This document shows positions 2,457-58,530 of a stretch of DNA of 64,000 bases, piece by piece. The position numbers and the translations under genes were made by a program. Each line of letters opens with the position of its first letter. The stretch's first letter is position 1. The notes under the pieces were generated by a model. The model saw nothing but the letters and a program-made list of their open reading frames with translations, was not told the origin of the DNA and ran no database searches. This DNA is from Phycisphaerae bacterium (GTDB lineage Bacteria > Planctomycetota > Phycisphaerae > Phycisphaerales > UBA5793). Location: positions 2,132 through 66,131 of the forward strand of contig JBDIVQ010000005.1 of NCBI GenBank assembly GCA_039794345.1, read 5' to 3'.

Positions 2457-2516
2457 CGCCCGGTGAGTGCATCGAGATGCAGATCGCCCGGCACGCCGAG
2501 GTATTCGAGGGCGCCG

Positions 2517-2650
2517 GGTGCCGTGGTCCGGAGGGAGGCTTTGCGACCGGAGGGCCACGTCGTTGTGCGGACGGTCGATCACACCGGATCAATCGTCATT
2601 CGCGCGTCCGCGTGGCCCGCGCTCCCAGAGCCTCGCTTGACCACGGCACC
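2517..2650. repeat. 134-nt rod-like nested hairpin element at the ftsI 3' end
   Basis: Four nested helices. Perfect 12-bp terminal inverted repeat: ggtgccgtggtc 2517..2528 / gaccacggcacc 2639..2650. Inner helices: gaggct 2535..2540 / agcctc 2629..2634; gggccacg 2552..2559 / cgtggccc 2611..2618; gcggacg 2567..2573 / cgtccgc 2605..2611. Confidence 0.75.
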
Positions 2651-2669
2651 CTACGTCTCACAGTCGTGC

Positions 2670-4448
2670 TCAGTTCCGCGCCGTCTCATCCAGCGCCAGA
2701 TCGCCCGGCACGCCGAGGTATTCGAGGGCACGGTTCATCATCGTCGCGGCGACGGGTCCGCACACGGCGCCGCCGAAGTGGCCGAGGCTGCGGTCGGGGT
2801 CTTCGATGATGCAGAGGACGACGAGGCGGGGATCGTCCAGCGGCGCGCCGGCGATGAAACTGATGATGTAGCGGTCCTTGTGGTAGCCGCGGCCATCGCG
2901 CCGCGGCATTTCGGCCGTGCCCGACTTGCCGAACATGCGATAGCGCGCGACTTCGTTGGCCTTGCGTCCGCTTCCCAGCGTCATCACCTTTCGCATCGTC
3001 TGGCGGGTGAGATGAGCGGTCGATTCGAGCATGGGCCGCTGTGTAACATAAGGCACAATCGGCACATCCTGTGTGGGGACGATGAGGTTGATCGGGGGCA
3101 TCGAGCCGTCGCGGCAGAAGGCGGCGAAGGCCCGCACCATCTGGAGGGGCGTCACCGCGATCTCATGCCCCATCGAGACGCTCGTCTGCGTGTAGTGCGT
3201 CCACTCCTTCGGTATCGTGACAATGCCGCCGGTTTCGCCGGGCAGGCCGCTGCCGGTGGGCCGGCCGAAGCCGAAGTCCGCCACGCACTGCTGCAACTGC
3301 CGGTCCGTGAGTCGCAGCGCCGCCTGGGCCATGCCGATGTTGCTCGATTTGATCATCACGCCTTCCCAGGTGAGTTCGGGGTAGGGATAGGCGTCGCTGA
3401 TGTGCCGGCCGCGCGGCGTGCGGTAGGAGCCGTTGTGCGTGTTGAAGACTTCATCGATGGGGACGAGGCCGAGTTCCGTCACCCGCGCCCACACAAAGGA
3501 CTTGAACGTCGAGCCGGGTTCATAGGGATCGGTGATGCAGCGAAGGCGCGCCAGGCTGGGGTCGAGGGCGCGCAGCGGATCATCGGTGTAGGGGCCGTAG
3601 CCGGGGCGGTCGCGCAGGAGATCGGTCATGGCGAGGATCTCGCCGCTGTGGGGATCGAAGATCATCGCCCGCCCGCCGCCGGCATTGACCGCCTCGACGC
3701 CGGCGCGAATCTCCTCCTCGACGATGCGCTGCATCTCGACGTCGATGGCGAGGCGCACGTGGCGTCCGTCGGCGCCGGGAACGTGCCCGTCGCGCTCGAC
3801 CCACATCGCGTTGCGGTTGACGTCGCGCAGGTAGCGGAGGCGTCCGGGCCGGCCGGTGAGGACGGAGTTGTAGATGGCTTCGACGCCGCTGCGGCCGATG
3901 TGGTCGGTCCCGACGAGTCCGATGAGCGGGGCCGCGAGGTCGCCGTAGGGCCGGTGGCGCACGAGGACCGGCTCGACGCCGACGCCGCGGAAACTCGCGG
4001 TTCTCACCGCTTCGAGTTCCGCATCGGTGAGCAGGTCGATGAGCACGGCATAGCGCTTGTCGAGCCGCTCCTGCACCTTGCGATCGAGTTCGACGGGGTT
4101 GCGGCCGAGGAGGCTCGCGATGTCGATGGCGATGGTGTAGGGATCATCGACCTCCTGCGGATCGACAAAGAGGCGGTAGCCGACGCGGCTGGTGGCAAGG
4201 ACGCGGCCGCGCCGATCAAGGATGTCGCCGCGGTTGGCCATCTCGGGCCGGGTGGAACTGGTGAGCGGCGTATGGCGCACCAGGTTCTCGCTCGGCGCCG
4301 TCTGGAGTTGCGCCACGCGCGCCAGAACGAGCATCATCGCGCCGATGACCGCCGCCACGAGGAGGTTGAGCGCCAGGCCGAAGCGCCGGGTTTCAGATGC
4401 TGCGGGTCGAGCGGGTTCGAGGTGCATGGGGGCGTGCGGCCCGTTCAT
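2670..4448 (-). CDS. ftsI: peptidoglycan D,D-transpeptidase FtsI / class B penicillin-binding protein
   Basis: Contains the transpeptidase motifs STFK (GSTFKSF), SSN (KSSNIG) and KSGT (GKSGTAE). It has an N-terminal TM helix (LALNLLVAAVIGAMMLVLA). Its start overlaps the stop of the upstream ftsL-like gene by 4 nt. Confidence 0.9.
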   Translation of the reverse strand: MNGPHAPMHLEPARPAASETRRFGLALNLLVAAVIGAMMLVLARVAQLQTAPSENLVRHTPLTSSTRPEMANRGDILDRRGRVLATSRVGYRLFVDPQEVDDPYTIAIDIASLLGRNPVELDRKVQERLDKRYAVLIDLLTDAELEAVRTASFRGVGVEPVLVRHRPYGDLAAPLIGLVGTDHIGRSGVEAIYNSVLTGRPGRLRYLRDVNRNAMWVERDGHVPGADGRHVRLAIDVEMQRIVEEEIRAGVEAVNAGGGRAMIFDPHSGEILAMTDLLRDRPGYGPYTDDPLRALDPSLARLRCITDPYEPGSTFKSFVWARVTELGLVPIDEVFNTHNGSYRTPRGRHISDAYPYPELTWEGVMIKSSNIGMAQAALRLTDRQLQQCVADFGFGRPTGSGLPGETGGIVTIPKEWTHYTQTSVSMGHEIAVTPLQMVRAFAAFCRDGSMPPINLIVPTQDVPIVPYVTQRPMLESTAHLTRQTMRKVMTLGSGRKANEVARYRMFGKSGTAEMPRRDGRGYHKDRYIISFIAGAPLDDPRLVVLCIIEDPDRSLGHFGGAVCGPVAATMMNRALEYLGVPGDLALDETARN

Positions 4449-4804
4449 CGGACCGCCTCCGTCGCGGCTGTCTCCAGCGCGCGATCAGGCAGCACCGCGG
4501 AGGCCGGCAGTTCGACGAGGTAACACTCGCTCAGCAGCAGCGGCACCAGCCGTTCACCGGTTTCCCGCTCGAGGGCGGAGGCGAGGGCGGCGACGCGATC
4601 CTGGCGGAGTCGCTCGTGAATCGCCACGCGCAGGCGCCAGGAGCGCTCCTCGTGCTGGAGGAGCCGCCGATGGGTGACCGACATCTGGTACGCCGCTTCA
4701 ATGCGCTGCTGGCGGATGACCAGCAGGCCGCACGACGTAGCGCCGGCGATGAGGACACAGACCGCGACCTTGGGAACGAGCGCCATATCCCACTTCATCG
4801 ACAC
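4445..4804 (-). CDS. FtsL-like cell-division membrane protein (small bitopic, coiled-coil)
   Basis: 119 aa with a single N-terminal TM (VAVCVLIAGATSCGLLVI) followed by a Arg/Glu-rich helical region. It sits immediately upstream of ftsI with an ATGA overlap. The assignment rests on architecture and position, not on a sequence motif. Confidence 0.55.
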   Translation of the reverse strand: MSMKWDMALVPKVAVCVLIAGATSCGLLVIRQQRIEAAYQMSVTHRRLLQHEERSWRLRVAIHERLRQDRVAALASALERETGERLVPLLLSECYLVELPASAVLPDRALETAATEAVR

Positions 4805-4881
4805 TCGACTTGAGCCGCGATGAATCGCGTCACGGCCCCGCGAGGCGTCAGCGCGTGCCCCCCTTCACGGGAAAGGTCGTC

Positions 4882-5766
4882 CTAGCGCACCGGGATGCGG
4901 ATCGTCTTTCCGATGGGCAGCACATCGGGGTTTCGGATAATGTCGCGGTTGAGCGCCACGATCTCGTGCCAGCGCCCTCCCTTGCCGAGGTGTTTCTTCG
5001 CCAGATCCCAGAGGCGATCGTCTTCACGGATCGTGTAGTCAATCGTCTTGATCGCAGTGCTTCTGGCCGGCGGGGCTTGCGCGGCAGGGGCGGTCGGCGT
5101 GTGGCCCGGGGGCGCGGTTCGTCCGCCCGTCAGCACGTCTTTCTGCGGCAGGATGATCGTCATGCCTGGAAGCAGCCGACTGGTCGGGGGAATGACGTCG
5201 GCATTGTGGCTGAGCAGCGCTTCGTAGAGTGAGCCATCGCCGTAGAACCTGCGGCAGAGGCCGTACAACGTATCGCCGTCGCGGACGACGTACCGCTCGC
5301 CCGACGCACGGCCGGCCGAAGACTCAGGAAGGACCGGCGTGGGGCCGGGGCCCATGATGATCGGCTCCGCCTGGCTCTCCCCGGAGTTCACATGCTGCTC
5401 ATACTCGGAGGCCTGACCGGTTCGCAGATCAAGGTCCGGGCCGGCAGAGCCGCCGGCGGGGGGAGGTGCAGTTCCGGCTCCCCCCTCGACCGTGGGCTGC
5501 ATCGCCCCCTGCGGCGGCTCAAAGAGCGTGATCTCCCGGTTGGCGGGCGCGTCGAAGGAAGTCGCCGCCGCCGACTCGCCGAACTGTCGGCGATACTGGT
5601 CGCCCATGCCCGAGGGCAGTTGGACGAGCGGACTGGGGGACGACGTCTCCTCGAGGCGCGCCAACTCGCCCTGCTGGGCAGGAGAGAGATGGTCGGCGAG
5701 CAGGATGGCCACGACCAGCAGAAGGCTGAATCCGACGATGAGTGCCAGTTTGTTTTCGCGTGTCAT
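4882..5766 (-). CDS. membrane-anchored protein with two C-terminal LysM peptidoglycan-binding domains
   Basis: N-terminal TM (LALIVGFSLLLVVAILLA), then a low-complexity linker. Two LysM-like units follow: YVVRDGDTLYGLCRRFYGDG...GMTIILP and YTIREDDRLWDLAKKHLGKGGRWHEIVALN...GKTIRIP. Confidence 0.8.
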   Translation of the reverse strand: MTRENKLALIVGFSLLLVVAILLADHLSPAQQGELARLEETSSPSPLVQLPSGMGDQYRRQFGESAAATSFDAPANREITLFEPPQGAMQPTVEGGAGTAPPPAGGSAGPDLDLRTGQASEYEQHVNSGESQAEPIIMGPGPTPVLPESSAGRASGERYVVRDGDTLYGLCRRFYGDGSLYEALLSHNADVIPPTSRLLPGMTIILPQKDVLTGGRTAPPGHTPTAPAAQAPPARSTAIKTIDYTIREDDRLWDLAKKHLGKGGRWHEIVALNRDIIRNPDVLPIGKTIRIPVR

Positions 5767-5868
5767 GTGCGCTGAGCCAACTCCATGCCGAGCGTCTTGC
5801 GATTGTCGTGGAATCCTTCCGCGAGGCTGCCCGGACGCTCCAGTCCGGGGCGACGGATCTTCGTCTCG

Positions 5869-29254: not shown

Positions 29255-30205
29255 TCAGCGCCACCAGGAGTTGTTGTACGTCTTGTCATCCCAACTGTCG
29301 AGGTCGCGCAACGTGTCGCGCTGGCGAATCTCAACATGGCTGTCGGCAAAGAGGGCGTTGGAGCCGGAATTGAAGTGGCGGCGGCTCCAGATGCGGGCGA
29401 TGTTTCCACCCCAGTTGTTCGAGTCCCGTTCCGGGCCGTTGATGTGGACCTCGAGAAACACATCGTACCAGTGATCCAGGTAGGGGTAGCCCCGCATCTG
29501 CCCGGAGATCGAGTTGTCCGGATCGTCGGTGAACTCCGACATGTACATGGCATGGTCCGGCTGCATGAACTCGCTGAGCGGCGCCGTCGGGTGCCGGCCG
29601 TCGCGGTACAGGCCCCCCGCGCGCTGCATCATGATGCCGTTGTTGATGTAGTGGACGACATGCAGCGGATTGGGATACGACGGGCACTGATACTGCTTCA
29701 TCCCATCGAACAGGTCGTGATCAAGCCACACCGTGCTGTCGAGGTTGTGCATGCGCGAATCGGTAAGCGGTCGCACGTACTTGTACAGGGCGCGCGGCCA
29801 GGGGTAGTAGTACGCGTATCCGCCGTTGCGGTACAGGTGAGGCTGGCCTTCGCGCGGCACGAAGTCCTTGTAGTCGGTCGCGTAGATGTGCAGCGCGTAC
29901 CCGATCTGCCGCAGATTGGAGGCGCAGACGCTTGCCCGGCCGTGCTCGCGCGCCCTTCCCAATGCCGGAAGCAGAAGACTGATGAGCAGCGCGATGATCG
30001 AGATCACCACGAGCAGTTCGATGAGCGTGAAGCCGCGAGGCCGAGGCGCCGCGGGGAGGGGCGGAAGAAGCGAAGACTTTCGCACGATAGAGCCGCCTTT
30101 CGTGTCGCGCCCGAACGGGCGGGGGAATCCGCGGTGGCCGGCGGGAGCGACACTCGCCGCCTTCGGCCGACTCGAAAGCATGGTCGATAGTGTGGGCGAT
30201 GTCAA
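29255..30205 (-). CDS. DUF1559-type prepilin-like protein (type II/IV pilin N-terminal cleavage-methylation motif)
   Basis: [26 protein letters not shown] followed by the [20 protein letters not shown] body typical of planctomycetal DUF1559 proteins. The true start is probably internal, for example the GTG of VRKSSLL near 30085. Confidence 0.85.
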
Positions 30206-30256
30206 GGGTAATCCCCGATTCTCGCGCCAGATTCCGCGTTCTCCCCGCCGCTATCC

Positions 30257-31075
30257 TTGCCCATGCGACTCATCCGATTCAGCACAGCGGCCGCGCCGGA
30301 CCGGCCGATGACGGGGGTGGATTGCGGCGACGGGCATGCTCTGCCCCTGGCGGGGAGCATCCTCGGCCCCCTCGAGCCCGTGGGCGAGCCGGTCCCCTTC
30401 GGTCGGCTCCACGCACCGCTGCACCCGCCGGTCATTATGGGCATCGGCCTGAACTACCGCGTTCACGCCGCCGAGCAGGGCAAGGAGCCTCCGCAGCGAC
30501 CCATGATGTTCATGAAGAACCCGGCGGCGGTCTGCGGGCCGGTCGATGACATCATCGTGCCCCGCGTCTGCCAGGAGCACGAGCAGGTGGACTTCGAGTG
30601 CGAACTGGGGGTGGTGATAGGCCGATCCTGCCGCGATGTGCCTGCGGAGCGGGCGCTGGACTATGTCCTCGGCTGCACCGCGGCCAACGACGTGAGCGCG
30701 CGGTGGTGGCAGAAGCACGCCGGCGGGGGGCAGTTCTGCCGCGGCAAGTCCTTCGATACCTTCTGCCCCATCGGGCCCTGCGTCGTCACCCTCGACGAAC
30801 TCGGCGACCTCGGCGAACTGCGCGTCCGCACGCGCGTGAACGGCGCAACGATGCAGGACTCGAACACTTCGGACCTCATCTTCAGCGTGGCGCACCTGAT
30901 CGCGTTTCTGAGCGAGGGCACGACGCTCCTGCCGGGCACGCTCATCCTCACCGGCACGCCGGGAGGCGTGGGATTCGCGCGAACGCCGCCGGTCTGGCTG
31001 CGTGACGGCGACGCCGTGGAAGTCGAGGTCGAGAAGATCGGCGTGCTGCGCAATCGCGTGGTGTATGAGCGGTGA
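30257..31075 (+). CDS. fumarylacetoacetate hydrolase (FAH) family protein
   Basis: GIGLNYRVHAAE, DFECELGVVIG and GTLILTGTPGGVG motifs of the FAH/HpcE-type fold. Confidence 0.85.
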   Translation: MPMRLIRFSTAAAPDRPMTGVDCGDGHALPLAGSILGPLEPVGEPVPFGRLHAPLHPPVIMGIGLNYRVHAAEQGKEPPQRPMMFMKNPAAVCGPVDDIIVPRVCQEHEQVDFECELGVVIGRSCRDVPAERALDYVLGCTAANDVSARWWQKHAGGGQFCRGKSFDTFCPIGPCVVTLDELGDLGELRVRTRVNGATMQDSNTSDLIFSVAHLIAFLSEGTTLLPGTLILTGTPGGVGFARTPPVWLRDGDAVEVEVEKIGVLRNRVVYER

Positions 31076-31128
31076 ATCGCGCGCACACGCCGAAGCCCAT
31101 GTTCATTGAACATGGGCGTCGGCATGCA

Positions 31129-31833
31129 TCACGCGCTTTCGTTCAACCGCTTCATCACCGCCTGGAGGTCCGACCACACCTTGCCGCGCGCTTCGGGGGT
31201 GTAGTTGCGCAGGAGGTAGGCGGGGTGGAAGGTGGGCATGACGGGGATTTCGAGATCGCCGAGGCGGCAGGAGTGCCATGAGCCGCGCAGGGCCGAGATG
31301 CCCTCGGTCGTGTCGAGCAGGAACTTGGTGGCCGGGGCGCCGAGCGCGACGATGACCCTCGGCGCGATGATCCGGAGTTGCTCGGCGAGGTAGGGGGCGC
31401 ACTTCATGACCTCGGCCGGCGTGGGAGTGGCGTTGTTGGGCGGACGGCTCTTGAGGACGTTGGCGATGTAGACCTCTTCGCGCTGCAGCCCCATCGCGGT
31501 GATCATCTTGCTGAGCAGTTCGCCGGCGCGGCCGACGAAGGGCCGGCCGGTGCGGTCCTCTTCCGCCCCCGGGGCTTCGCCGACGAAGACGAGCCGGGCG
31601 TCGGGATCCCCCTCGCCGAAGACGGTCCGGGTGTGCGCCGTGGCGGTGGTGCAGTGGGGGCACTCGCGATCGTGGCGGGCGCGGAGATCGTCGAGAAGGG
31701 CCTGCTTGCCGGAGGCGGCGGCGTCCGCGGGGCGCCGCGCCGGCAGCGGCACGAAGCCGACGCCGAACAACTGGTCCGTCCGGACCATCTGCCGCGCCGC
31801 GCGGAGGGCCGGGTCTGCACCCGCGCGGCTCAT
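31129..31833 (-). CDS. udg: uracil-DNA glycosylase, family 4 (Fe-S type)
   Basis: C-terminal 234 aa of ORF 31129..32424. CPHC Cys pair, FGEGDPDARLVFVGEAPGAEED motif A, and HPAYLLRN motif B. Confidence 0.88.
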   Translation of the reverse strand: MSRAGADPALRAARQMVRTDQLFGVGFVPLPARRPADAAASGKQALLDDLRARHDRECPHCTTATAHTRTVFGEGDPDARLVFVGEAPGAEEDRTGRPFVGRAGELLSKMITAMGLQREEVYIANVLKSRPPNNATPTPAEVMKCAPYLAEQLRIIAPRVIVALGAPATKFLLDTTEGISALRGSWHSCRLGDLEIPVMPTFHPAYLLRNYTPEARGKVWSDLQAVMKRLNESA

Positions 31834-32612
31834 GGCAGCACCCCCGCGCAGAGGCGCCGCAGCGCTTCGAGGCTCTTGCGGCTCGATTCGAGCGACGTGC
31901 CGCAGAAGTCCGAGTCCTGCTCGACGATGAACCACTCGACGCCGCCCGCCGCCGCCGTCTTGAGGATCGGCTCGAAGCGGATGATCCCCGAGCCGATCTC
32001 GGCGAACCTGCGGCTCCGGGCATCGCGCATGTCCTTGAGGTGAAGCAGCGGTGTGCGCTTCACGTGCCGGGTGAGGAACTTGAGCGGGTCCGCTCCGCCA
32101 TGCCGGCACCAGTAGACATCGATCTCGAGGCGGATCCGGTCCGGCGGCGCCTCGGCGATGATGTCGATGCCGCGCCGCGCCGAATCCGGACCGAGGGTGT
32201 GAAACTCGAAGTTGTGGTGGTGGTAGGCGAGGCGCAGCCCCCGGCTGGCGAGCACCTCGGCGATGCCGAGCATCTCGCGCACCGCCTGGCGGTAGCCCGG
32301 TTCGCTGCGGTACTCCTCGGTCAGGTAGGGAATCACCACGAGATCGGTGCCGAGGGTGCGGACTTCGTCGATGCACTCCTCGATGTCCGCGCTGAGGCGC
32401 AGGAGGCTGATGTGCGAGCCGCACGCCCGCAGCCCGACGCGGTCGAGCGTCCGGCGGACCGAGGCCGGGGGATGGTCGAACAGCCCGGCGAACTCCACGC
32501 CGGCAAAGCCCATCTCCGCGGTTTGCTCGAGCGCAGCATGGAGATCCTGCTCCGCAACGTCGCGGATGGTGAAGAGTTGAAGCGCGATCGGAGGCGTGGC
32601 GGCCGGGCCCAT
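31830..32612 (-). CDS. sugar phosphate isomerase/epimerase (xylose isomerase-like TIM barrel)
   Basis: C-terminal 260 aa of ORF 31830..33710 (IALQLFTIRD...GFAGVEFAG...YHHHNFEF...EIDVYW...IVEQD). Its stop overlaps the udg start (ATGA). Confidence 0.8.
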   Translation of the reverse strand: MGPAATPPIALQLFTIRDVAEQDLHAALEQTAEMGFAGVEFAGLFDHPPASVRRTLDRVGLRACGSHISLLRLSADIEECIDEVRTLGTDLVVIPYLTEEYRSEPGYRQAVREMLGIAEVLASRGLRLAYHHHNFEFHTLGPDSARRGIDIIAEAPPDRIRLEIDVYWCRHGGADPLKFLTRHVKRTPLLHLKDMRDARSRRFAEIGSGIIRFEPILKTAAAGGVEWFIVEQDSDFCGTSLESSRKSLEALRRLCAGVLP

Positions 32613-32804
32613 GCCCTTCTCCCAGGTGGCGCGGAAGCGGCGCAGTATATGCGTTCCGGCGGTCGGCGCGCGGCCATTCACGTTGTGGCGTCTCTGCGGC
32701 GGCGCACCTATCGTGCTGCCCCGCAGGGCGGGTGGAGGCGGAAGCGCTGTTCGGTCGCAGCGCGGGGCCGTCGCCACATCAGTTGCCGGAATGGCGCGCC
32801 GACC

Positions 32805-33767
32805 ATGGTCGAGATGAGCATCATCTATGCCGCTTGCGTCGCCGGGGCGATCGGGCTGCTCTTTCTCCTGCCGCGGGGCGACCGGCGGTGGGCGCCGATC
32901 GGCGCGGTGCTCGGGGGCGGGGCGCTGGGGGCGGGGTTGCTCGCGCTGTCGCGAGGCCAGGCGGCGGGCGGCGGCGTTGATGTCTTCTTCTACGTCCTCG
33001 CCTTCCTCGCCGTCGGCGCCGCGGTCAGGATGATCACCCATCCCCGGCCCGTCTACGCGGCTCTCTACTTCATCCTCGTCGTCCTTGCCGTCGCGGGGCT
33101 CTTCGTGCAACTCGCGGCCGAGTTCATGGCCTTCGCCCTCATCATCGTCTACGCCGGCGCCATCCTCATCACCTACCTCTTCGTCATCATGCTTGCGCAG
33201 GAAGCGCCCGACGACCGGCATCCCGATGCGCTCACCGACTATGACGCCACGGCCCGCGAACCCGTCGCGGCGACGATCGTCGGCTTCGTCCTTCTCGCGG
33301 CGCTGCTCGGAATGATGTACCGCGGCACAAGCCAGATGCCGGCGCATGCTGCGACGCACCGTCCGGCCGATGCGGAACTGGCGATGCTCACCGGCAAGGT
33401 CGAGGCCGCCTTGCGCAAAGCGGACCTGATCCGGCCGGAAGAGACGATCCGGGAGGTCGATGCGGAGACCCGCACGGCTCTCGTCGCATCTCCTTCGGGC
33501 GACGGAGTCCGAACGGTGACGCTGCCCGTCGATCTTCGCGTGAGCAACGTCGATGCCGTCGGCGTTTCGCTCCTGAGCGAGTTTCCCGTGAGCCTCGAAG
33601 TGGCGGGGGTGATTCTGATGCTCGCCATGCTCGGCGCGGTCGTGCTGGCGCGGAAGGAGCGTCTTGATGCGCCCCGCGAATCGCAGAGCCTCATCGGAAA
33701 GGCGCCCCACGATTCGCAGACCCTCATCGTGGGCGTGGGGGCCAGCGCGGAGGGGGGCGCATCATGA
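32805..33767 (+). CDS. nuoJ: NADH-quinone oxidoreductase subunit J (unusually long, 320 aa)
   Basis: Part of ORF 32040..33767, starting at MVEMSIIYAACVAGAIGLLF. NuoJ helices are present (YFILVVLAVAGLFVQLAAEFMAFALIIVYAGAILITYLFVIML and the terminal EVAGVILMLAMLGAVVLA). It has an expanded TM4-TM5 loop and a repeat-derived C-terminal tail. Confidence 0.85.
   Translation: MVEMSIIYAACVAGAIGLLFLLPRGDRRWAPIGAVLGGGALGAGLLALSRGQAAGGGVDVFFYVLAFLAVGAAVRMITHPRPVYAALYFILVVLAVAGLFVQLAAEFMAFALIIVYAGAILITYLFVIMLAQEAPDDRHPDALTDYDATAREPVAATIVGFVLLAALLGMMYRGTSQMPAHAATHRPADAELAMLTGKVEAALRKADLIRPEETIREVDAETRTALVASPSGDGVRTVTLPVDLRVSNVDAVGVSLLSEFPVSLEVAGVILMLAMLGAVVLARKERLDAPRESQSLIGKAPHDSQTLIVGVGASAEGGAS
33672..33735 (+). 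repeat. tandem 33-nt repeat module forming the NuoJ C-terminal tail
   Basis: ccccgcgaatcgcagagcctcatcgg (33672..33697) and ccccacgattcgcagaccctcatcgtgggcg (33705..33735). They are translated APRESQSLIGK / APHDSQTLIVG. The second unit is 30/31 identical to the reverse complement of 58420..58450. Confidence 0.8.
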
Positions 33768-34084
33768 CCGACGCCCTCTCCGTCCTCGCGCTCAATCACT
33801 ACCTGCTGCTCAGCGCCGTGCTCTTTGTCATCGGCTTCATCGGCTTCCTCACGCGGCGCAACCTCATCATCATGTTCCTGTGCACGGAACTGATGTTCCA
33901 GGCGGCGGCGATCGCGATGATCGCCTTCGGCGCCCACCACGGCAACGTGCAGGGGCAGGTGTTTCTCATTTTCATTCTCACCATTGCGGCGGCGGAGGCG
34001 GCGCTGGCGCTGGCGCTGGTCGTCATGCTCTATCGCCGGCGGCCGACGCTCGATGCGGAGAAATGGTCGGAGTTGAAAGGCTGA
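33764..34084 (+). CDS. nuoK: NADH-quinone oxidoreductase subunit K
   Basis: 106 aa and three TM helices (LLLSAVLFVIGFIGFLTRRNLIIMFLCTELMFQAAA...AAAEAALALALV). The start overlaps the nuoJ stop. Confidence 0.92.
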   Translation: MTDALSVLALNHYLLLSAVLFVIGFIGFLTRRNLIIMFLCTELMFQAAAIAMIAFGAHHGNVQGQVFLIFILTIAAAEAALALALVVMLYRRRPTLDAEKWSELKG

Positions 34085-34088
34085 TGCC

Positions 34089-36131
34089 GTGATGACCAGC
34101 GCCCTGAGCGCCCATCTCGCTCTGCACGCTTCGCCGACGCTCGCGTCGGCGGCGGAAGCGGTGCGCCTCGGCGTGCCGGTCGAGTGGATTCCCTTCGCGC
34201 CGCTCCTGGCCGCGGTGCTGTGCGGCATTCTGGCCCTGCGCCCCGGCGACGCCCGCGCCCGCTATGCCGGCGCGATCTGCGTCGCCGGACTGGGCCTGGC
34301 CTTTCTGACTTCCGTCGCGGTCGCCGTCAGCATCGGCCACGGCACGGCCCAGGAGACGATCTTCGAGTGGATCCGCTTCGACCGCCTTCGCGCCGACTTC
34401 GCCTTCTTCCTCGATCCGCTCACAAGCATCATGCTTCTCGTCGTGACGGGCATCGGCACGCTCGTGGCGGTGTACGCCTCGGAGTACATGCGCGGCGACC
34501 GCGGCTATGCGCGATTCTTCGCCTTTGTCAGTCTCTTCATCACAGCGATGACGACGCTGGTGCTCGCCGACAACCTCATCCTCATGTACCTCGGATGGGA
34601 GGGGGTGGGGCTGTGCTCGTATCTGCTCATCGGGTTCTACTACGAGAAGCCCGCCGCCGTCGCCGCCGCCAAGAAGGCGTTCATCGTCAACCGCGTCGGC
34701 GACCTCGGCTTTGCGCTGGGCATCTGCCTGGCGTACGTGCAATTCGGCAGCGTCGAGTTCGCGGTGATCTTTGAGCAGGTCGAAGCGCTGCGGGCGTCGG
34801 GCGCTGAGATCTCGACGGCGATCCAGGCGATCCCCTTCCTGCTCATGCTCGGCGCGTTCGGCAAGAGCGCGCAACTGCCGCTGTACGTCTGGCTGCCGGA
34901 TGCGATGGAAGGCCCGACGCCGGTTTCGGCCCTTATCCACGCCGCGACGATGGTGACGGCGGGCGTCTATCTCATCGCCCGCACGCTGCCCCTGTTTCTG
35001 CTCAGCGAGTACGCCCTGCCGACGGTCGCGTGGGTGGGCTGCCTGACGGCGGTCTTCTCCGCGACCATCGGCATGGCGCAGTACGACATCAAGCGCATCT
35101 TCGCCTACTCGACCGTTTCGCAACTGGGCTACATGTTCATGGGGCTGGGGGTGCTCAGCAGCGTCGGCGCGACCTTTCACCTCTTTACCCACGCCTTTTT
35201 CAAGGCGGCGCTCTTCCTCGGCTGCGGCGCGGTGATGCACGGCTTTGCGGGGCAACTCGATCTGCGCCGCCTTTCGGGCCTTGGCCGCGTGCCGGGCTGG
35301 CAGATCGTGACGGGTTCGATGCTCGTGGCCTGCCTCGCGCTGGCCGGGTTTCCGCTCACCTCCGGGTTTTTCAGCAAGGACATGATTCTGGCCGAAGCGT
35401 TCGTCACGCCCGGGCCGGGATATCGCGCGATCGGCTGGATCGGGCTGCTGACGGCGGGGATGACGGCGTACTACACCTTCCGGGTCTTCTTCCGCGTCTT
35501 CCTCGGCCCGGTGCAGTATCACCCCGGCGAAGAGCATCACGGACACGACGATGCCCATCATTTTCACCCGCACGCGCCGGGGCCGGCGATCAACTTCGTG
35601 CTCATCGTGCTGGGCATCGGCGCGATCTTCGCCGGCTGGGTCGGCGTCGGCGGCGCGCATCATGGGTGGTTCGGCTCGATGATCCATCACTCGACGGCGG
35701 CGTACGAAGCGCCGGCCGGCGCAGCGCACGGCGGCTTTTTCAGCAACCCGCACCAGTGGATGATGCTCGCGTCGTCGATCGTCGGACTCGTGGGCATCGG
35801 TGTTGCCGCATATCTGCACCTGCTCAACAGGCCGATGGCCGAGCGCCTGCGCCGAGCGATCCTGCCGGTCGCGGTTCTTGCGGAGCACAAGTGGTGCGTG
35901 GATGAGGGCTATGACCTGCTCATCCGCCGTCCGCTGCGGTTCATCGGGCACGTCTGCTACGCGCTTGGCGACACGCTCATCATCAACGGGCTGGTCGCGC
36001 TGGGCGGGGCGGTCCCGCGACTCATTGGCGCCGCGGTGCGGCCGATGCAGAACGGCCGACTTCAGGGCTACGGCCTCGGAATGGCCGGCGGGCTGGCCAC
36101 CATCATCATCATCGTCTGGGTCATGCTGTGA
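34089..36131 (+). CDS. nuoL: NADH-quinone oxidoreductase subunit L
   Basis: 680 aa antiporter-like subunit (YLGWEGVGLCSYLLIGFYYEK, KSAQLPLYVWLPDAMEGPTPVSALIHAATMVTAG). Confidence 0.93.
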   Translation: MMTSALSAHLALHASPTLASAAEAVRLGVPVEWIPFAPLLAAVLCGILALRPGDARARYAGAICVAGLGLAFLTSVAVAVSIGHGTAQETIFEWIRFDRLRADFAFFLDPLTSIMLLVVTGIGTLVAVYASEYMRGDRGYARFFAFVSLFITAMTTLVLADNLILMYLGWEGVGLCSYLLIGFYYEKPAAVAAAKKAFIVNRVGDLGFALGICLAYVQFGSVEFAVIFEQVEALRASGAEISTAIQAIPFLLMLGAFGKSAQLPLYVWLPDAMEGPTPVSALIHAATMVTAGVYLIARTLPLFLLSEYALPTVAWVGCLTAVFSATIGMAQYDIKRIFAYSTVSQLGYMFMGLGVLSSVGATFHLFTHAFFKAALFLGCGAVMHGFAGQLDLRRLSGLGRVPGWQIVTGSMLVACLALAGFPLTSGFFSKDMILAEAFVTPGPGYRAIGWIGLLTAGMTAYYTFRVFFRVFLGPVQYHPGEEHHGHDDAHHFHPHAPGPAINFVLIVLGIGAIFAGWVGVGGAHHGWFGSMIHHSTAAYEAPAGAAHGGFFSNPHQWMMLASSIVGLVGIGVAAYLHLLNRPMAERLRRAILPVAVLAEHKWCVDEGYDLLIRRPLRFIGHVCYALGDTLIINGLVALGGAVPRLIGAAVRPMQNGRLQGYGLGMAGGLATIIIIVWVML

Positions 36132-36138
36132 GCTCATC

Positions 36139-36324
36139 AGAACCAACCACAGAGATTAAGAACCAACCACAGAGAACACAGAGGACACAGAGGATGAACA
36201 GAGTTGGATTGAGAGTCGAAGTCGAAGTCGAGGACATGATGTGAAGTCGAGTGAGGTTTCTGAGATTGAAATGAACTGCATTCCCCTCTGTGCGCCCTCA
36301 GTGTCCTCAGTGTTCTCTGTGGTT
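36139..36324. repeat. low-GC inverted-repeat (MITE-like or structured-RNA) element in the nuoL-nuoM spacer
   Basis: Arms: aaccacagagaacacagaggacacagagg (36165..36193) and cccctctgtgcgccctcagtgtcctcagtgttctctgtggtt (36283..36324). They are complementary at about 34 of 39 positions. There is also a perfect 17-nt tandem duplication agaaccaaccacagaga (36139..36155, 36159..36175) and agtcga micro-repeats in the centre. Confidence 0.75.
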
Positions 36325-36350
36325 GCATCTGTTTCGACGTTTGTAGAGCC

Positions 36351-37945: not shown

Positions 37946-39529
37946 ATGCTTGATCGCGTCGCGACACTCTGGCCCGAGATCATTCTCTTCGTCACCGTGA
38001 TGGTTCTGATGCTCACGGGCACGAGTGGAGACAAGGACATCCGCCGCGCCGGCTTGTGGATCGCCGGCGTCGGGCTGCTCCTGGCGTTCATCTTCGCGGT
38101 GCGCATGCCTGAGCCGGAGACGCTCATGCCGGGGCTGGCGGGCTTCATGCGGCCCGCAGCGTGCGTGGTGGGGTTCCTGCTTCTGATGGGTCTGGGCAAC
38201 ATTGACTCGCGGCTCGAATCGGAGGTGGACGGCGGGCGTCGCTTCGACCCCCTCGACACGACGCAGGGCGAGCAACTCTGCTTCTTTCTCCTCTCGCTCA
38301 TCGGCCTGATGCTCTGCACGACCGCGAGCGATCTCATCTGGCTCTTCCTCGCGCTGGAGATGACGAGCCTGCCGACGTACATCATGGTCGCGCGAAGCCG
38401 CTCGAAGAAGGCGTCGCAGGAAGCGGCGGTGAAGTATTTCTTCCTCGGGGCGGCGGCGGCGGCGATCTTTCTCTACGGCTTCGCCATGCTCTACGGCGCC
38501 ACCGGCTCGCTGCACCTGCTCGACATCCGCGCAGCGCTCGAAGCGCAGGCGGCGGCGGGGGGCATCGGTTCGCTGGCCATCCTCGGCCTGACGCTGGCGA
38601 TCATCGGCGTCTCCTTCAAGATCGCGGCGGTTCCCATGCACTTCTACACAGCCGATGTCTACGAAGGGGCGGCGGCGCCGGTCACGGCCTTTCTGGCCTT
38701 CGTGCCCAAGGCGGCGGGCTTCGTCGTCCTCATGCTCCTGCTCGGCACGGCCCTGCACCTCGGCGAGGGTGGGCAGGCGTGGCCCGAGGCGATTCGCGTC
38801 CTTCTCTGGGTGCTCGCGGCGCTCACCATGACCATCGGCAACGCCCTGGCGATGTGGCAGAACCGCATCAAGCGCATCCTCGCCTACTCCTCGATCGCGC
38901 ACAGCGGTTATATGCTCGTCGGCCTTGTCGCCGCGATGGAAACGGCCGGCTCGGCGAGCGCTTCTCCGGCGACCAACGGCTTCGCGGCGGTGCTCTTCTA
39001 CATCGTCGTCTACGGCATCACCAATCTCGGCGCGTTTCTCGTCCTTGCCTGCCTTGAGCGTCGCGGCGAGGAGATCGAGACCGTTGATGACCTCGAAGGA
39101 CTCTGGAGCCGCCACGCCGGGCATGCGACGATCCTCGCGCTGTGTACGCTCTCGCTCATGGGTCTGCCGCCGCTGGTCGGGTTTTTCGCGAAGTTGTTTC
39201 TCTTCACCTCGGCGATTCGCGCGGGTGAGTACGTGCTGGTGATCATCGCCGGGCTCAACAGCGCCGCCGCGGCGTGGTACTACCTGCGACTCGCGGGCGT
39301 GGGCTGGGTGCGCCGGCCGGGTTCGAGCGCCGGCGAGATCGAGCGCACGCCGGTCGTTGCGCGGCGCTTCGCGGCCGGGGTGTCCGCCGCGACGACGATC
39401 CTCCTGCTGGCGCTCACGGCGCGGCTCATCACCGCCGGCGATCAGGCGGTGCAGTTGCGCCCCTCCGACGCGCCGCCGCACCACGCCGCGCTGTCGACTC
39501 CCGCCGCGGATGATCGGCCGCAGCGCTAG
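37946..39529 (+). CDS. nuoN: NADH-quinone oxidoreductase subunit N
   Basis: 527 aa (LALEMTSLPTYIMV, FKIAAVPMHFYTADVYEGAAAPVTAFL, AYSSIAHSGYML). Confidence 0.92.
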   Translation: MLDRVATLWPEIILFVTVMVLMLTGTSGDKDIRRAGLWIAGVGLLLAFIFAVRMPEPETLMPGLAGFMRPAACVVGFLLLMGLGNIDSRLESEVDGGRRFDPLDTTQGEQLCFFLLSLIGLMLCTTASDLIWLFLALEMTSLPTYIMVARSRSKKASQEAAVKYFFLGAAAAAIFLYGFAMLYGATGSLHLLDIRAALEAQAAAGGIGSLAILGLTLAIIGVSFKIAAVPMHFYTADVYEGAAAPVTAFLAFVPKAAGFVVLMLLLGTALHLGEGGQAWPEAIRVLLWVLAALTMTIGNALAMWQNRIKRILAYSSIAHSGYMLVGLVAAMETAGSASASPATNGFAAVLFYIVVYGITNLGAFLVLACLERRGEEIETVDDLEGLWSRHAGHATILALCTLSLMGLPPLVGFFAKLFLFTSAIRAGEYVLVIIAGLNSAAAAWYYLRLAGVGWVRRPGSSAGEIERTPVVARRFAAGVSAATTILLLALTARLITAGDQAVQLRPSDAPPHHAALSTPAADDRPQR

Positions 39530-39694
39530 CGCGTGGGGTGGCATGGCGTCGCGCTTCGCGTCGCTATGCCCGGGCGTTCCCGCACGATCGATCGTCCCTG
39601 CGCGATCTGCATAGCCAGGCGAAGCACCAGGCCATGCCACCCATCACGCGCCCGCGATCGGCTCCGATCGAATCGCCGACCATACGATCTTCAC

Positions 39695-49431: not shown

Positions 49432-49433
49432 AT

Positions 49434-49604
49434 GTTGCCGCGAAATACGTTGCCGCGAAGAAGATTGCCGCAAAGAGGCACAGAAGGCGCAAAAGGGGAA
49501 GAGCGGGAGTGGGGGAGATGGCTGCCGTCCGGAGGACTCCTGGAGTTCGACTTGTTGAGCCTCATCGGCGATTTGCTTTTGCGCAATTTGAGCCTTTTTG
49601 CGGC
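49434..49604. repeat. low-GC tandem + inverted-repeat element in the purC-xseA spacer
   Basis: Three 15-nt-period tandem units (gttgccgcgaa 49434, gttgccgcgaa 49449, attgccgcaaa 49464). Imperfect inverted arms: gccgcaaagaggcacagaaggcgcaaaag (49467..49495) / cttttgcgcaatttgagcctttttgcggc (49576..49604). Confidence 0.7.
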
Positions 49605-51118: not shown

Positions 51119-51128
51119 AGTCCGAGCC

Positions 51129-54926: not shown

Positions 54927-55553
54927 ATGCCGCAGCGTGTTACACCGATCTTCGGGCTTGTGATGGTGTCTGTGCTTGCTATCGTGGGAAACGGCTGCGC
55001 TTCCTACTACGGCGGGACATCAAACGAAAGCCCCATCTTGGTCGCTGAGCATGGTTCAGTCGTCCCGCTCTACCGCTTGTCGATCTGGCAGGAGCCGTCT
55101 TTCCCGGATCCTTTCGGCCGGCCCGTGCTGAGTGCGCTGGTCCATGAGCCGAAGACTGATCTCTCTTCCGCAGAACTCAAACAGCTGCTCTCGTCGATTC
55201 CAGATGAGTATGTCCTTGAGCGCTCTGACGGCGAATTGACCACCGCCAGAACGCTCAGAAATCCTGTTGCCAAGGCGACGTCAAACGAAGTGGCGTGGGA
55301 CATGCGCTGGGTGCTCAGTATCGAGCCGCTCGTCATTGCGATCTCGGCGTACTCTCCCGATGCCTGGTATGAGCGTGACCCCACCTGGGCACGATTCTCC
55401 AATCCACCGATGCGTTTCGTGGAAGAGCGACTCAAGTCGGTGCAAGTCACGCGGTACATCGTCGTGCGGGATCGCGAACCAGTGACAACGGTGCTGAACC
55501 AAGAGCGTTCCCTTGGAGCGCTACTTGAATCGCAGCCGTGGAACGGCGAGTAG
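54927..55553 (+). CDS. hypothetical lipoprotein (orphan, lower G+C)
   Basis: Lipobox VLAIVGNGC, preceded by GAGGAG. No recognisable domain. Many A/T third positions (GTT ACA ... CTT GCT ... TCT), unlike the neighbouring genes. Confidence 0.6.
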   Translation: MPQRVTPIFGLVMVSVLAIVGNGCASYYGGTSNESPILVAEHGSVVPLYRLSIWQEPSFPDPFGRPVLSALVHEPKTDLSSAELKQLLSSIPDEYVLERSDGELTTARTLRNPVAKATSNEVAWDMRWVLSIEPLVIAISAYSPDAWYERDPTWARFSNPPMRFVEERLKSVQVTRYIVVRDREPVTTVLNQERSLGALLESQPWNGE

Positions 55554-55639
55554 AGTCCTCAGAGGGGCAGCATGTCGCCCCGATCGCGGTGCGCACTGAC
55601 TCGACTCTAACTGCACGTTCGCACATCGCATCGGTGCAA

Positions 55640-57121
55640 TCATGAGTCGAGACGTTCCCGCACCAGTTGGATGAAGCGCTGCCCGCGCTGCTCGAAGTTG
55701 GTGAACTGGTCCCAACTGGCGCAGCCGGGGCTGAGCAGGAGAATGTCGCCGGCCTCCATTCGCGCCATGGCGCTGCGGACCGCAACGTCCAGCGTGCGGC
55801 AGTGCAGGCACGTCCCCGTCGGCGCAAGGTCGTGGATCCGCTCGCCCACCGCGCCGATGGCGTAGAGTCGCGCGACGCGCTCGCCCAGCGCCGCCAGCGG
55901 CGCGAGATCCGCCTTCTTGTCGTACCCGCCGACGATGAGGTGCAGCCGCGCGGGATCATCGAAGGACTCGACCGCGAGCGCGGCAGCGGCGGGGGTGGTG
56001 CACTTGGAGTCGTTGTAGAAGCGCCGGCCGTCCTTCGTCTGCGCCACGAGTTCGAGTCGGTGGGGAAGGCCGCGGAAGTCCGCCAGCGCGGCGATTGATT
56101 CGTCAAATGGCACGCCAGCCGCACGGCATGCCTCAGCGGCCATGAGCGCATTGAGGCGATTGTGCCCGCCGGGGATGAGCAGGCTGATCCCCGCGAATCG
56201 CAGGTCGTCCGCGGCGATGTCAGTGCGCTCGACGCCTTCGCTGGTCGGCCAGTCGCGCAGGCCGGGGCCGAGGATCGCGTGATCACCGGGGTGCTGGTGC
56301 GCCAGCAGGTGCTGCTTGGAGGCGCGGTAGTGATCGAGCGAGCCATGCCAGTCGGCGTGGTTGTCGCTGAAGTTCGTGATGACGGCGACGTGGGGGGACC
56401 ATTTGTGGGTTTTGGTTAGCCGCGACGCGGAGGCTTTGCGCAGCGGAGCGCGGGCGTGCGACGTTGAAAAGTCACCCCCACCCCCGCCCTCCCCCGCAGA
56501 GCCGGGGGAGGGAGTGCCTTCGGTTAGCCGCGACGCGAAGGCTTTGCGCAGCGGAGCGCGGTCGTCCGCAGTCCCCGCGCCCCCCAGCCACCACAGCATC
56601 GCGCTGGACAACTCGAGCACGACCCACTCCTCCGCGCCGATCTCGACGCCGAGCAGCGAGCCGCCGATGTTGCCGCCGAGGTGCGCGGCGCCGCAGTGCG
56701 CCCGCAGGATGTGATGAATCATCGCGCTCGTTGTGGACTTGCCCGCCGTACCTGTCACGCCGATGATGCGATCGCGATCGGGCAGTGAATCGATGAGCAG
56801 TTCGATCTCCGTGGTGATCTCTGCGCCCGCCTCGCGTGCCGCGTTGAGGAACCGGTTCTCCCACGGCCGCGGCACCGCCGGATTCGCCACGACCAGGTCC
56901 GTCTCGCGGAAGTCGCGCTCCTCGTGCCCGCCGAGAACCAGCGTCACCTGTCCGGCATCAACCAAATCGCGCACGGATTCGAGCGAATCGGCGAGTTGAT
57001 CGGCAGAGGCGAGATCGGTCAGCAGCACGCGGCAGCCGCAGCGCTGCACGAGCCAGCGCGTTACTCCGACGCCGCCGCCGAAGTGCCCGAGGCCCATCAC
57101 GGTGACCCGCTGTTGCGTCAT
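55640..57121 (-). CDS. murD: UDP-N-acetylmuramoylalanine--D-glutamate ligase, carrying an in-frame repeat insertion
   Basis: VTVMGLGHFGGGVG Rossmann N-domain. GVTGTAGKSTT P-loop. VLELSS strand. ITNFSDNHADWHG. C-terminal YNDSKCTTP and LLLSPGCASWDQF. About 57 extra codons lie between VLELSS and AVITNF. Confidence 0.9.
   Translation of the reverse strand: MTQQRVTVMGLGHFGGGVGVTRWLVQRCGCRVLLTDLASADQLADSLESVRDLVDAGQVTLVLGGHEERDFRETDLVVANPAVPRPWENRFLNAAREAGAEITTEIELLIDSLPDRDRIIGVTGTAGKSTTSAMIHHILRAHCGAAHLGGNIGGSLLGVEIGAEEWVVLELSSAMLWWLGGAGTADDRAPLRKAFASRLTEGTPSPGSAGEGGGGGDFSTSHARAPLRKASASRLTKTHKWSPHVAVITNFSDNHADWHGSLDHYRASKQHLLAHQHPGDHAILGPGLRDWPTSEGVERTDIAADDLRFAGISLLIPGGHNRLNALMAAEACRAAGVPFDESIAALADFRGLPHRLELVAQTKDGRRFYNDSKCTTPAAAALAVESFDDPARLHLIVGGYDKKADLAPLAALGERVARLYAIGAVGERIHDLAPTGTCLHCRTLDVAVRSAMARMEAGDILLLSPGCASWDQFTNFEQRGQRFIQLVRERLDS
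56414..56561. repeat. direct-repeat pair with central hairpin embedded in frame in murD
   Basis: 40-nt units ggttagccgcgacgcg[g/a]aggctttgcgcagcggagcgcgg at 56414..56453 and 56522..56561 (39/40 identical, 108-nt period). A perfect 10-bp stem lies between them: ccctcccccg 56487..56496 / cgggggaggg 56503..56512. Confidence 0.85.
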
Positions 57122-58530
57122 GGCTGGCCGTAGCGGTGGCGGTATTTGCGGTCGAGCGCCTTCTGCTTGTTGTCGAGATCGACTTCCGCCCCGTCGATGT
57201 ATGCGGCGAGGACGTGGGTGGTGATTTCGAGCGGATCGCCGTCGGTGATGATGAGCGTGGCGTTCTTGCCGGTTTCGAGCGAGCCGAGCACCTTGCCCGC
57301 TCCGATGATTTCGGCGGCGCTGAGTGTGACGGCGCGCAGAGCGATCTCAGCGGGCAGGCCGTACGCCGCCGACTTCGCCGCGTGATAGGGCAGGCTGCGC
57401 TCGTGGGCCGGCTCTTCGCCGCTGGCGATGCAGAAGCGAATGCCCGCCTCGTGAAGCGCCAGCGGCAGCGTGAAAGGCTGGTCGTGCGCAAGGTCGCGGC
57501 GCGTCGGCATGCGGTGCGTGCCGACGACGATAACGGGAACGTCGTGAGCCTTGAGCAGGTCGAGGCACTGGTCCGCGTCGGCACCGCCGACGATCACCGC
57601 GCGCAGGTTCATGCGGTTGGCCCACGCGACGGCCGAACGGATCTGCGCCGCATCGCCCGCGTGAATGAAGACCGGCACGAGGCGGTCGATCGCCGGCAGC
57701 ATCGACTCGAGGCGCAGGTCAACGGGGAAGGTGGGATCGGCGCTGCGGGCGCGCTGATAGGCCCTGGCCTCCTCGAAGGCGCGGTCGATGCGGTCGAGAT
57801 TCTCTTTGCTGCGGCGGAGTTGCTCCTCTTCGCTCTCCTCGATCCACCACGCCGTGCGCGGCCGGACGTTGGGCCAGCGCACCACCAGCCCGGCGCGGTC
57901 GGCGATGGTGAGTTCTTCCGTCGTCCAGCCGTCGAGGCGGATCGTCGAGCAATAACCCGAGATTGTCCCTCCCTGCGGCACGACGAGGGCGGTGAGGATG
58001 CCGTTGGCGCGTGTGACGGGGATGAGCGCGCTGTCGGGGTTGACGGCGATGACGGCGCGGACCTCGGGCGTGATCGCGCCGGTTTCGCTCACGTCGATCG
58101 TGGCGCGGACGGCGCCGATCTCGCTCAGCCCCAGCGTCGTGTCGGCGCTGATCAGGCCGGGATAGACGTGCTTCCCCGCGGCGTCGATCACTTCCGTCTC
58201 GCCCGCGGCGGCGTAGGCGCCGGCGCCCACGTCGGTGATGATCCCGTCGCGGAAGACGATGTAGCCGCGCTCGATCGACTCGCTCGACACCGGGTGGATC
58301 GTCGCGTTGACGATGGCGATGGTCTTCTCCTGCGGCTGCCCGGGGATCTGGATCGACTGGGCGTGCGCCGATGCCACGAGGCACAGCGCCGCCGACACAG
58401 CGAGAAGCACTGAGGCGGACGCCCACGATGAGGCTCTGCGAATCGTGGGGTGCTCTCCGCGAATCGCAGCGAGCCTTCGCTCCCCTGCGCAGAGCCTTCG
58501 GGTCGCGGCTAAACAGGTCATCAGGTTCAT
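57118..58530 (-). CDS. amidohydrolase-family protein (secreted), metal-binding HxH motif apparently absent
   Basis: Part of ORF 57118..58824, starting at MNLMTCL (ATG after GGAGGAA). Signal-like ASASVLLAVSAALCLVASAHA. Amidohydrolase N-terminal pattern (IVNATIHPVS...GKHVYPGLISADTTLG), where ISAD replaces the usual xDxHxH. The stop overlaps the murD start (ATGA). Confidence 0.75.
   Translation of the reverse strand: MNLMTCLAATRRLCAGERRLAAIRGEHPTIRRASSWASASVLLAVSAALCLVASAHAQSIQIPGQPQEKTIAIVNATIHPVSSESIERGYIVFRDGIITDVGAGAYAAAGETEVIDAAGKHVYPGLISADTTLGLSEIGAVRATIDVSETGAITPEVRAVIAVNPDSALIPVTRANGILTALVVPQGGTISGYCSTIRLDGWTTEELTIADRAGLVVRWPNVRPRTAWWIEESEEEQLRRSKENLDRIDRAFEEARAYQRARSADPTFPVDLRLESMLPAIDRLVPVFIHAGDAAQIRSAVAWANRMNLRAVIVGGADADQCLDLLKAHDVPVIVVGTHRMPTRRDLAHDQPFTLPLALHEAGIRFCIASGEEPAHERSLPYHAAKSAAYGLPAEIALRAVTLSAAEIIGAGKVLGSLETGKNATLIITDGDPLEITTHVLAAYIDGAEVDLDNKQKALDRKYRHRYGQP
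58420..58514. repeat. composite of the murD-type and nuoJ-type repeat units inside the amidohydrolase 5' coding region
   Basis: The reverse complement of 58478..58514 matches the murD unit at 33/37. The reverse complement of 58420..58450 matches nuoJ 33705..33735 at 30/31. A partial extra unit (gcgaatcgcagcgagcc) lies between them. Confidence 0.8.

Follow-up and report, generated by a model that had tools for sequence, protein, structure and literature searches.

Short hairpin-repeat families, probably forming a BIME-like set, inside reading frames and at gene junctions of a Phycisphaerales bacterium

The DNA analysed here (the window) is a stretch of 64,000 nucleotides from a Phycisphaerae bacterium of the order Phycisphaerales (assembly GCA_039794345.1, contig JBDIVQ010000005.1, positions 2,132 to 66,131 of the forward strand). 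It carries short hairpin repeats that lie either at gene ends or, in frame, inside genes. Its G+C content is 64-71%, mostly 66-69%, and the homologues of its MurD and FtsI agree with a placement in Phycisphaerales (Planctomycetota). The main host genes are given below; all positions are those of the window.

2670-4448, minus strand: ftsI; its 3' end is one of the loci proposed by a first-pass annotation of the window.
nuoJ: the C-terminal tail ends at the ATGA overlap with nuoK.
55640-57121, minus strand: murD; repeat nest in the middle domain.
57118-58531, minus strand: second of two amidohydrolase genes; repeats at its 5' end.

The repeats of murD, nuoJ and the amidohydrolase gene fall into three hairpin types, M1, M2 and M3. 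M1 is a 36-nt hairpin of the repetitive extragenic palindrome (REP) type. A shorter string by which the first-pass annotation had linked several loci (core 1) was found to be part of M1.

56415..56451, plus strand: M1 copy a (TTAGCCGCGACGCGGAGGCTTTGCGCAGCGGAGCGC, long-loop form), antisense to murD, translated as RAPLRKASASRLT; nhmmer unit profile, E 7e-13.
56523..56559, plus strand: M1 copy b, likewise antisense to murD, translated as RAPLRKAFASRLT; nhmmer unit profile.
58478..58513, minus strand: M1 copy c, stem variant CCC/GGG, sense in the N-terminus of the second amidohydrolase and read as LAATRRLCAGER.
56471..56518, minus strand: M3, a G-rich hairpin, CCCTCCCCCGG-CTCTG-CGGGGGAGGG plus a G-run, read as GTPSPGSAGEGGGGG.
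56408..56578, minus strand: whole MurD nest, in frame, residues ~182-238, between the strands LELSSAML and SPHVAVITN.
58419..58453, minus strand: M2 hairpin, CCCACGAT-12 nt-ATCGTGGG, read as HPTIRRASSWA.
58454-58477: degenerate M2-like stretch between M2 and M1.
33669..33737, plus strand: pair of M2 hairpins in tandem, a degenerate one (33669-33702) and an intact one (33702-33737), in the C-terminal NuoJ tail, which is not conserved.

The three long matches on which the first-pass annotation was built are genuine and far beyond chance. The direct repeat of murD (56414-56457 and 56522-56565) is identical at 42/44 positions (BLAST E 3e-13), and its inverted copy at 58478-58512 is identical at 32/35 and 31/35 positions to the two murD units. 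Core 2 (33705-33735) and its inverted copy (58420-58450) agree at 30/31 positions, a match of any kind being found in 0/100 shuffles; a weaker tandem copy lies at 33669-33696. The repeats lie inside reading frames in both orientations, as had been claimed: translations are in frame and free of stops at all three placements (murD, amidohydrolase, nuoJ). Over 30008-35088, the repeat copies in the NuoJ tail included, the window agrees at 99.98% identity with an independent Logan assembly (L001), and the REP copies of murD and of the amidohydrolase gene recur at identical sites in relatives from other samples. An assembly artefact is therefore an unlikely source of the repeats.

In M1 an unpaired 5' tag, (G)TTAGC, is joined to an imperfect stem containing tandem G·A mismatches, CGC-GA-NNN / N'N'N'-GA-GCG. 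The loop is a GNA triloop in one form and 14 nt long in the other, to which the window copies belong. Four of its six reading frames are open. The core 1 query GGCTYTGCGCAGSGGAGCG was scanned against 185,579 species genomes; the following figures apply among the matches listed. There were 136 exact matches, and 109 matches had the full 36-nt unit, (G)TTAGCCGCGAC[G/C]CG[G/A]AGGCT[T/C]TGCGCAG[C/G]GGAGCGC, with a sharp 5' edge. The hosts of these 109 units are metagenome-assembled genomes (MAGs) of Planctomycetota from many families (Planctomycetaceae, Gemmataceae, Zavarzinella, Limnoglobus, Pirellulales and others), with a few contigs that are probably mis-binned. Matches to core 1 in Bradyrhizobium, Martelella and others lack the M1 flanks and were discarded as background. 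Two positions of the full units covary perfectly (73 G..C, 36 C..G, 0 other), hence the stem CGCGAC(G)C / G(C)GGAGCG with its tandem G·A mismatches. Elsewhere, M1 units are found as singletons and very often as inverted doublets ('+ then -', 30-120 nt apart, ~45 loci). In one complete MAG chromosome, 18 anchor matches were found in 64 kb of sampled loci. Widely spaced pairs in L105 and L104 were considered as full-length elements and rejected: they bracket moaA and unrelated open reading frames (ORFs), with no transposase. A CRISPR repeat was also rejected as the identity of the unit, the copies being single or in inverted pairs and never in regularly spaced arrays.

The gene associated with M1 encodes a protein of the RayT type. 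A search for the HUH...Y motif in the window and in the first 114 comparison loci matched only L093, where the ORF sits directly between M1 units. This ORF scores 25.3 bits against Pfam Y1_Tnp (cut-off 23) and has 4135 homologues of ~200 aa at E <=1e-5, many of them named 'REP element-mobilizing transposase RayT' by JGI and some belonging to the cultured Zavarzinella formosa and Humisphaera borealis. Their conserved motifs are PDHVHLV (HUH) and YVENNP (Tyr). In L093, a Zavarzinella MAG contig, the RayT gene itself (4487-5100) is split by a frameshift, i.e. is a pseudogene or reflects an assembly error.

Next, 80 metagenome loci picked by the RayT protein alone were searched for M1. The unit profile found 92 units in 42 loci, nearly all adjoining the ORF. 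With a 10-nt 5' anchor (TTAGCCGCGA), 215 of 235 matches lie <=200 nt from the ends of RayT ORFs, a zone covering 9.3% of all bases; an M1 copy is present in 68/80 loci, and in 51 loci M1 stands on each flank of the ORF. Both cultured genomes, Humisphaera borealis and Zavarzinella formosa (L202, L203), show REP pairs on either side of their RayT genes. In the loci selected by protein, the apical three pairs of the anchored units are mostly CGC/GCG (50), GCC/GGC (42) or CCC/GGG (41), more rarely GGC/GCC (9), ACC/GGT (3) or TGC/GCA (2), and the loops are mostly GNA triloops. Pair counting on the stem gave 97.6% of cells paired, 27 of them altered on both sides; neither the score nor the percentage was reached by any of 500 shuffles. 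RayT genes flanked by M1 in protein-selected loci, together with the covarying stem, therefore point to M1 as the cognate REP of this family. Two further RayT genes, in L132 (WBZO01031554.1) and L170 (WBZN01025460.1), are flanked by M1 in the long-loop form seen in the window. Their metagenome project is also the source of L115, the nearest relative with the murD nest, the contigs not being linkable to the L115 organism.

Copies differ between relatives at the same codon-level site. The MurD loop of the window is M1 + M3 + M1 and is 54 codons longer, net, than an empty one. In the orthologue alignment the loop is empty in P0009-P0012, P0018 and P0040, holds M3 only in four relatives (P0005-P0008) and holds one M1 only in two (P0003, P0004). 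DNA comparison gave M3 only in L117 and L121, one M1 only in L116, and M5 + M3 + a further hairpin + M1 in L115. M3 is at the identical site in L115, L117 and L121; the left M1 copy (56523..56559) is specific to the lineage of the window. In a confident AlphaFold2 model of the window MurD (predicted template modelling score 0.81), only the insert, residues 182-238, is below 50 in predicted local distance difference test score: the nest lies in a disordered loop.

In the amidohydrolase gene, M1 copy c follows the ATGA-coupled start codon (58531) and precedes the signal peptide. In the window M1 is accompanied there by M2; in L115 the same M1 unit stands alone at that site. L117 and L119 have an empty site: their genes begin at the ATGA overlap and lead directly into the signal peptide. 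L121 lacks the insert too and starts after a short spacer. In-frame insertion in a functional ORF with insert-free orthologues, a behaviour described for Rickettsia palindromic elements (RPEs), was found for MurD and likewise for the amidohydrolase, as the first-pass annotation had supposed; copies lie in real genes in two orientations or frames. Empty orthologous sites, which it had proposed to look for, are present for MurD, the amidohydrolase and the ftsI end.

The tandem M2 hairpins of NuoJ (fold z = -3.6) end at the ATGA overlap with nuoK. NuoJ homologues have tails that vary naturally, 10-60 aa past the last transmembrane helix, and the M2 copies lie within this part. M2 is also found in frame inside rsmA/ksgA of a PLA1 MAG that is labelled Vicinamibacteraceae but is Planctomycetota-like (L080:1179-1212). 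The M2 pattern had no match in viral contigs.

M3 is found elsewhere in the genomes sampled by L080, L081, L094, L101, L117, L119 and L121. Three relatives (L119:19150-19260, L121:19326-19436, L117:20052-20149) carry it in frame within the 5' region of mfd: L121 and L117 have two copies each, and L119 has it together with M5. An in-frame mosaic of an M3-like repeat and another hairpin repeat lies in uvrA of the PLA1 MAG (L080 ~4540-4580). M5, absent from the loci of the first-pass annotation, was first seen as an inverted repeat.

39529..39649, no strand assigned: M5, an inverted doublet and second REP-like hairpin, at the junction of nuoN and the next gene.

The M5 hairpin has a CATAGC tag, a stem with an A·A mismatch and an AAG triloop; as read from the sequence, its two arms differ by compensatory changes. 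Copies are found in the murD nest of L115, inside mfd of L119 and in L041. Mosaic combination of different motifs, characteristic of bacterial interspersed mosaic elements (BIMEs), was found at the MurD site, in the amidohydrolase gene (M1 + M2) and in mfd (M3 + M5).

The reading favoured here, with a rough probability of 0.75, is that several independent families of short hairpin repeats (M1, M2, M3, M5 and M6, the last at the ftsI end) make up a BIME-like set in the window, that M1 is the cognate REP of a Planctomycetota-wide RayT-type Y1/HUH family and that the window copies are its long-loop form. The first-pass annotation was right in its central idea of repeats that look mobile, and right that the modules are multi-copy repeat families, copies being found lineage-wide in other genomes. 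Its view of one family at six loci, joined by shared short cores, gives way to at least five separate families that nest together.

REP systems, including REP doublets forming hairpins (REPINs) with REP-associated tyrosine transposases (RAYTs), and BIME clusters are published (PMC2817692; PMC3116915; PMC3733652; PMC6006769). M1 resembles them as a short imperfect palindrome with an unpaired 5' tag, in multiple copies and inverted doublets, without target duplication; its copies bracket a ~200-aa Y1/HUH gene, cluster in mosaics with other motifs and are occasionally in frame, DNA-repair genes included. It differs in its tandem G·A mismatches, in its GNA triloop or 14-nt loop insert and in being one sequence conserved phylum-wide rather than genus-wide. 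The protein family is weak in Pfam Y1_Tnp and is not obviously a published subclass: the motif here is YVENNP, and the 'class 3' described for Planctomycetes combines YV..EQ with a CnGA foot.

RPE-4 and RPE-6 of Rickettsia are reported to be CGTC-type REPs (Di Nocera 2013, PMC3733652). Like the intragenic copies described here, RPEs are short palindromes in frame in functional genes, with insert-free orthologues and an extra surface peptide. They differ in lineage and have no known dedicated transposase, in contrast to the tightly linked RayT of M1; here, moreover, unrelated families stack at one site. This comparison is one of behaviour: membership is not claimed, and a sequence relationship is not expected. 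Opitutus terrae, of the same Planctomycetes-Verrucomicrobia-Chlamydiae (PVC) superphylum, has intragenic GTAG REPs, with double insertions in uvrA (PMC3733652). REP singles or dimers are in frame in housekeeping and repair genes in both cases, and the PLA1 relative has its own uvrA mosaic; the repeat sequence and the phylum differ, MurD, Mfd and RsmA are new host genes, and the nests mix at least four families. The repeats are thus no new class of element but a new lineage example of a known phenomenon. Its differing features are the TTAG tag, the G·A stem, the phylum-wide unit, the weakly recognised RayT and the stacking of families at codon-level sites. The suggestion that the family was undescribed may hold for this Planctomycetota REP, of which no description was found, and not for the phenomenon in kind, which is published (PMC3733652, PMC6006769). 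A literature search for the M1 unit sequence found no paper containing it; the sole match, in an Enterobacter paper, is due to chance.

Several observations weigh against the favoured reading. No RayT gene or Y1 motif was found within the 64-kb window, and the window has two direct copies of M1 and one singleton, never an inverted doublet. The tag (TTAG; GTGAAG(C) in Gemmataceae and Zavarzinella formosa) is similar to the canonical GT[AG]G but not the same. Against NCBIfam REP_Tyr_transpos, the L093 ORF scores 42 bits (E 7e-11), below the cut-off of 80. The RayT profile is distant from the structures of IS200/IS605 transposases and of E. coli TnpAREP (4ER8), with E values of 6e-4 and 0.03; a single-sequence search of PDB with RayT gave nothing significant. 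No association of M2, M3, M5 or M6 with RayT genes was found. The block at the ftsI end is bounded by a 43-nt direct repeat, which does not fit a RAYT-type event. Finally, 0 of ~280 M1 units from other genomes lie deep inside a real gene; in the two candidates for such a placement, in L061 and L041, the unit proved to be upstream of the true start. Intragenic placement of M1 is on this count an exception for which a lineage-specific explanation may be needed, and intragenic nesting accordingly seems to be a feature of this Phycisphaerales group.

By analogy to IS200/IS605 transposases and RAYTs, RayT would recognise the folded single-stranded hairpin plus its tag and would mobilise M1 by cutting and rejoining single-stranded DNA, so that units and inverted doublets spread without target-site duplication. 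Indirect evidence of mobility comes from copies that are present in some relatives and absent in others (MurD and amidohydrolase sites). The genome of the window would then be expected to encode a RayT, and M2, M3, M5 and M6 would have spread comparably. New copies may prefer to insert beside or inside existing hairpin repeats, by which nests would build up. Intragenic nests would survive if their length is a multiple of three, their frame is stop-free and the site is tolerant (a surface loop, a tail or the n-region of a signal peptide). Such a filter would yield in-frame copies in MurD, in the amidohydrolase N-terminus and in the NuoJ tail.

A bolder proposal, tentative and rather doubtful at present, is that insertion is targeted and not random followed by filtering. 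It is suggested because the same codon-level site of the MurD loop was hit repeatedly by at least four unrelated hairpin families in sister lineages, and a like pattern is seen in mfd and uvrA of relatives. The first hairpin in a tolerant loop might act as a landing pad for any later family (hairpin-into-hairpin homing). If so, homing would generate self-growing 'intragenic BIMEs' and fast-evolving surface loops in conserved housekeeping proteins of Phycisphaerales.

A first alternative, unlikely though not without its own evidence, is that the hairpins are functional sites of the host (terminators, mRNA-stabilising or protein-binding sites) that are selected and not mobile, the intragenic copies being incidental local duplications. 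Secondary roles of REPs are known in other bacteria (PMC3733652, PMC6006769), some window copies lie exactly at gene ends (NuoJ/NuoK, nuoN/next gene), and M3 and the NuoJ tail fold more stably than shuffles. The amidohydrolase segment, however, folds no better than shuffles (z = -0.68), and the same M1 unit lies in either orientation within coding regions. Many families carry it at non-orthologous sites, close relatives differ in having or lacking it at one codon-level site, and its copies cluster around a transposase gene.

A second, quite improbable alternative is that the 36-nt unit is the terminal inverted repeat (TIR) of a DDE-type MITE, singletons being solo ends. Many M1 copies elsewhere are indeed inverted doublets with units at the outer ends and a variable centre, and a '+ ... 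-' pair encloses the RayT ORF at several loci, as TIRs enclose an insertion sequence. Against this, no target-site duplication beyond chance was found around 63 doublets, the flanks themselves being inverted (CCGG at either end). The unit forms a covarying hairpin of its own, singletons and doublets occur about equally often, and the sole consistently bracketed gene encodes a Y1/HUH protein, not a DDE transposase.

That the long matches are local duplications or assembly chimeras with no wider family, as might be supposed from the 2-3 copies of each module in the window and from the M1 copies all lying within 2.1 kb of each other, can be dismissed: more than 100 full M1 units (among the matches listed) and copies of M2, M3, M5 and M6 are present in other genomes, the independent assembly is identical over the nuoJ locus, and orthologous copies are found in relatives from other samples.

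If M1 is the cognate REP, as favoured here, a hairpin with an unusual tandem G·A stem and a phylum-wide sequence is defined for a very large and barely characterised Planctomycetota RayT family, and REP/RAYT biology gains a deep-branching, high-GC test case. In annotation, the repeats would help to flag spurious ORFs and wrongly called gene starts. The in-frame nests of MurD, Mfd, UvrA and RsmA, which are polymorphic, would serve as natural insertion-tolerance maps of essential enzymes and would allow testing whether hairpin repeats home into one another.

The end of ftsI differs from the sites above.

2470..2729, minus strand: pair of 43-nt direct repeats (2470-2512 and 2687-2729) with the interior.
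2513..2686, minus strand: sequence between the repeats; M6 (~140 nt, holding the 'ftsI-end hairpin') and the last 17 nt of the type-A ftsI terminus (2670-2686).

BLAST aligned the direct repeat over 33/33 positions. The interior and one repeat copy together form a block of 217 nt, comprising the type-A FtsI C-terminus and M6. L204, the closest relative (FtsI 91% identical), lacks this block and keeps the downstream flank. This block is an indel unlike a REP event: either a deletion across the repeat or a one-sided homologous capture. M6 is alignable at 73% to L121:19715-19915, in a different genomic context, upstream of mfd. The ftsI-end hairpin had been linked to core 1 through 'ggaggctttgcgaccggag', which has more than 3 mismatches to core 1; the alignment to L121 excludes this kinship, since the core-1-like string GGCTTTGCG of M6 arises at a 24-nt gap and the resemblance is thus a coincidence. 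Rfam 15 gave no match at the gathering threshold in the window and none at E <=1 around the ftsI-end element. The last ~70 nt of ftsI are duplicated (2441-2729): the functional copy ends ..GDLALDETARN*, and the remnant 3' of M6 reads ..GDLHLDALTGRQGN*. The remnant type is the real FtsI C-terminus in the two closest relatives tested, P0392 (91%) and P0394 (89%); the functional-copy type is used by P0393 (87%) and by more distant relatives.

The purC-xseA spacer had been joined to the other loci by several short strings, none of which places it in a family.

49432..49597, no strand assigned: purC-xseA spacer; membership demonstrated in no family.

The 12-mer of core 3 gives 4 matches in the window against 1.03 expected, a number reached by 3/100 shuffles: the excess is borderline, and in this spacer the links by core 3 and core 4 do not exceed chance. 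Core 4 has no match at <=3 mismatches at 49496-49517, and the 11-mer at 49575-49585, taken for a relative of core 1, is indistinguishable from chance. Among the fetched loci the spacer matched only itself. It contains three direct repeats (49434-49475: GTTGCCGCGAA / GTTGCCGCGAA / ATTGCCGCAAA), ~15 nt apart, with no copy in the fetched loci.

Two further kinds of inverted repeat were seen. Short near-perfect palindromes at gene ends (31089-31123 and 61932-61959) are terminator-like and unrelated to the repeat families. The nuoL-nuoM spacer (36164-36325) holds a large hairpin (RNA fold z = -5.9) whose 45-nt arms consist of CACAGAG heptads. Two loci of Zavarzinella MAGs (L057:3223-3328, L066:7625-7737) share these arms around a different centre; the repeat, multi-copy in relatives, looks like another phylum-wide inverted-repeat element.

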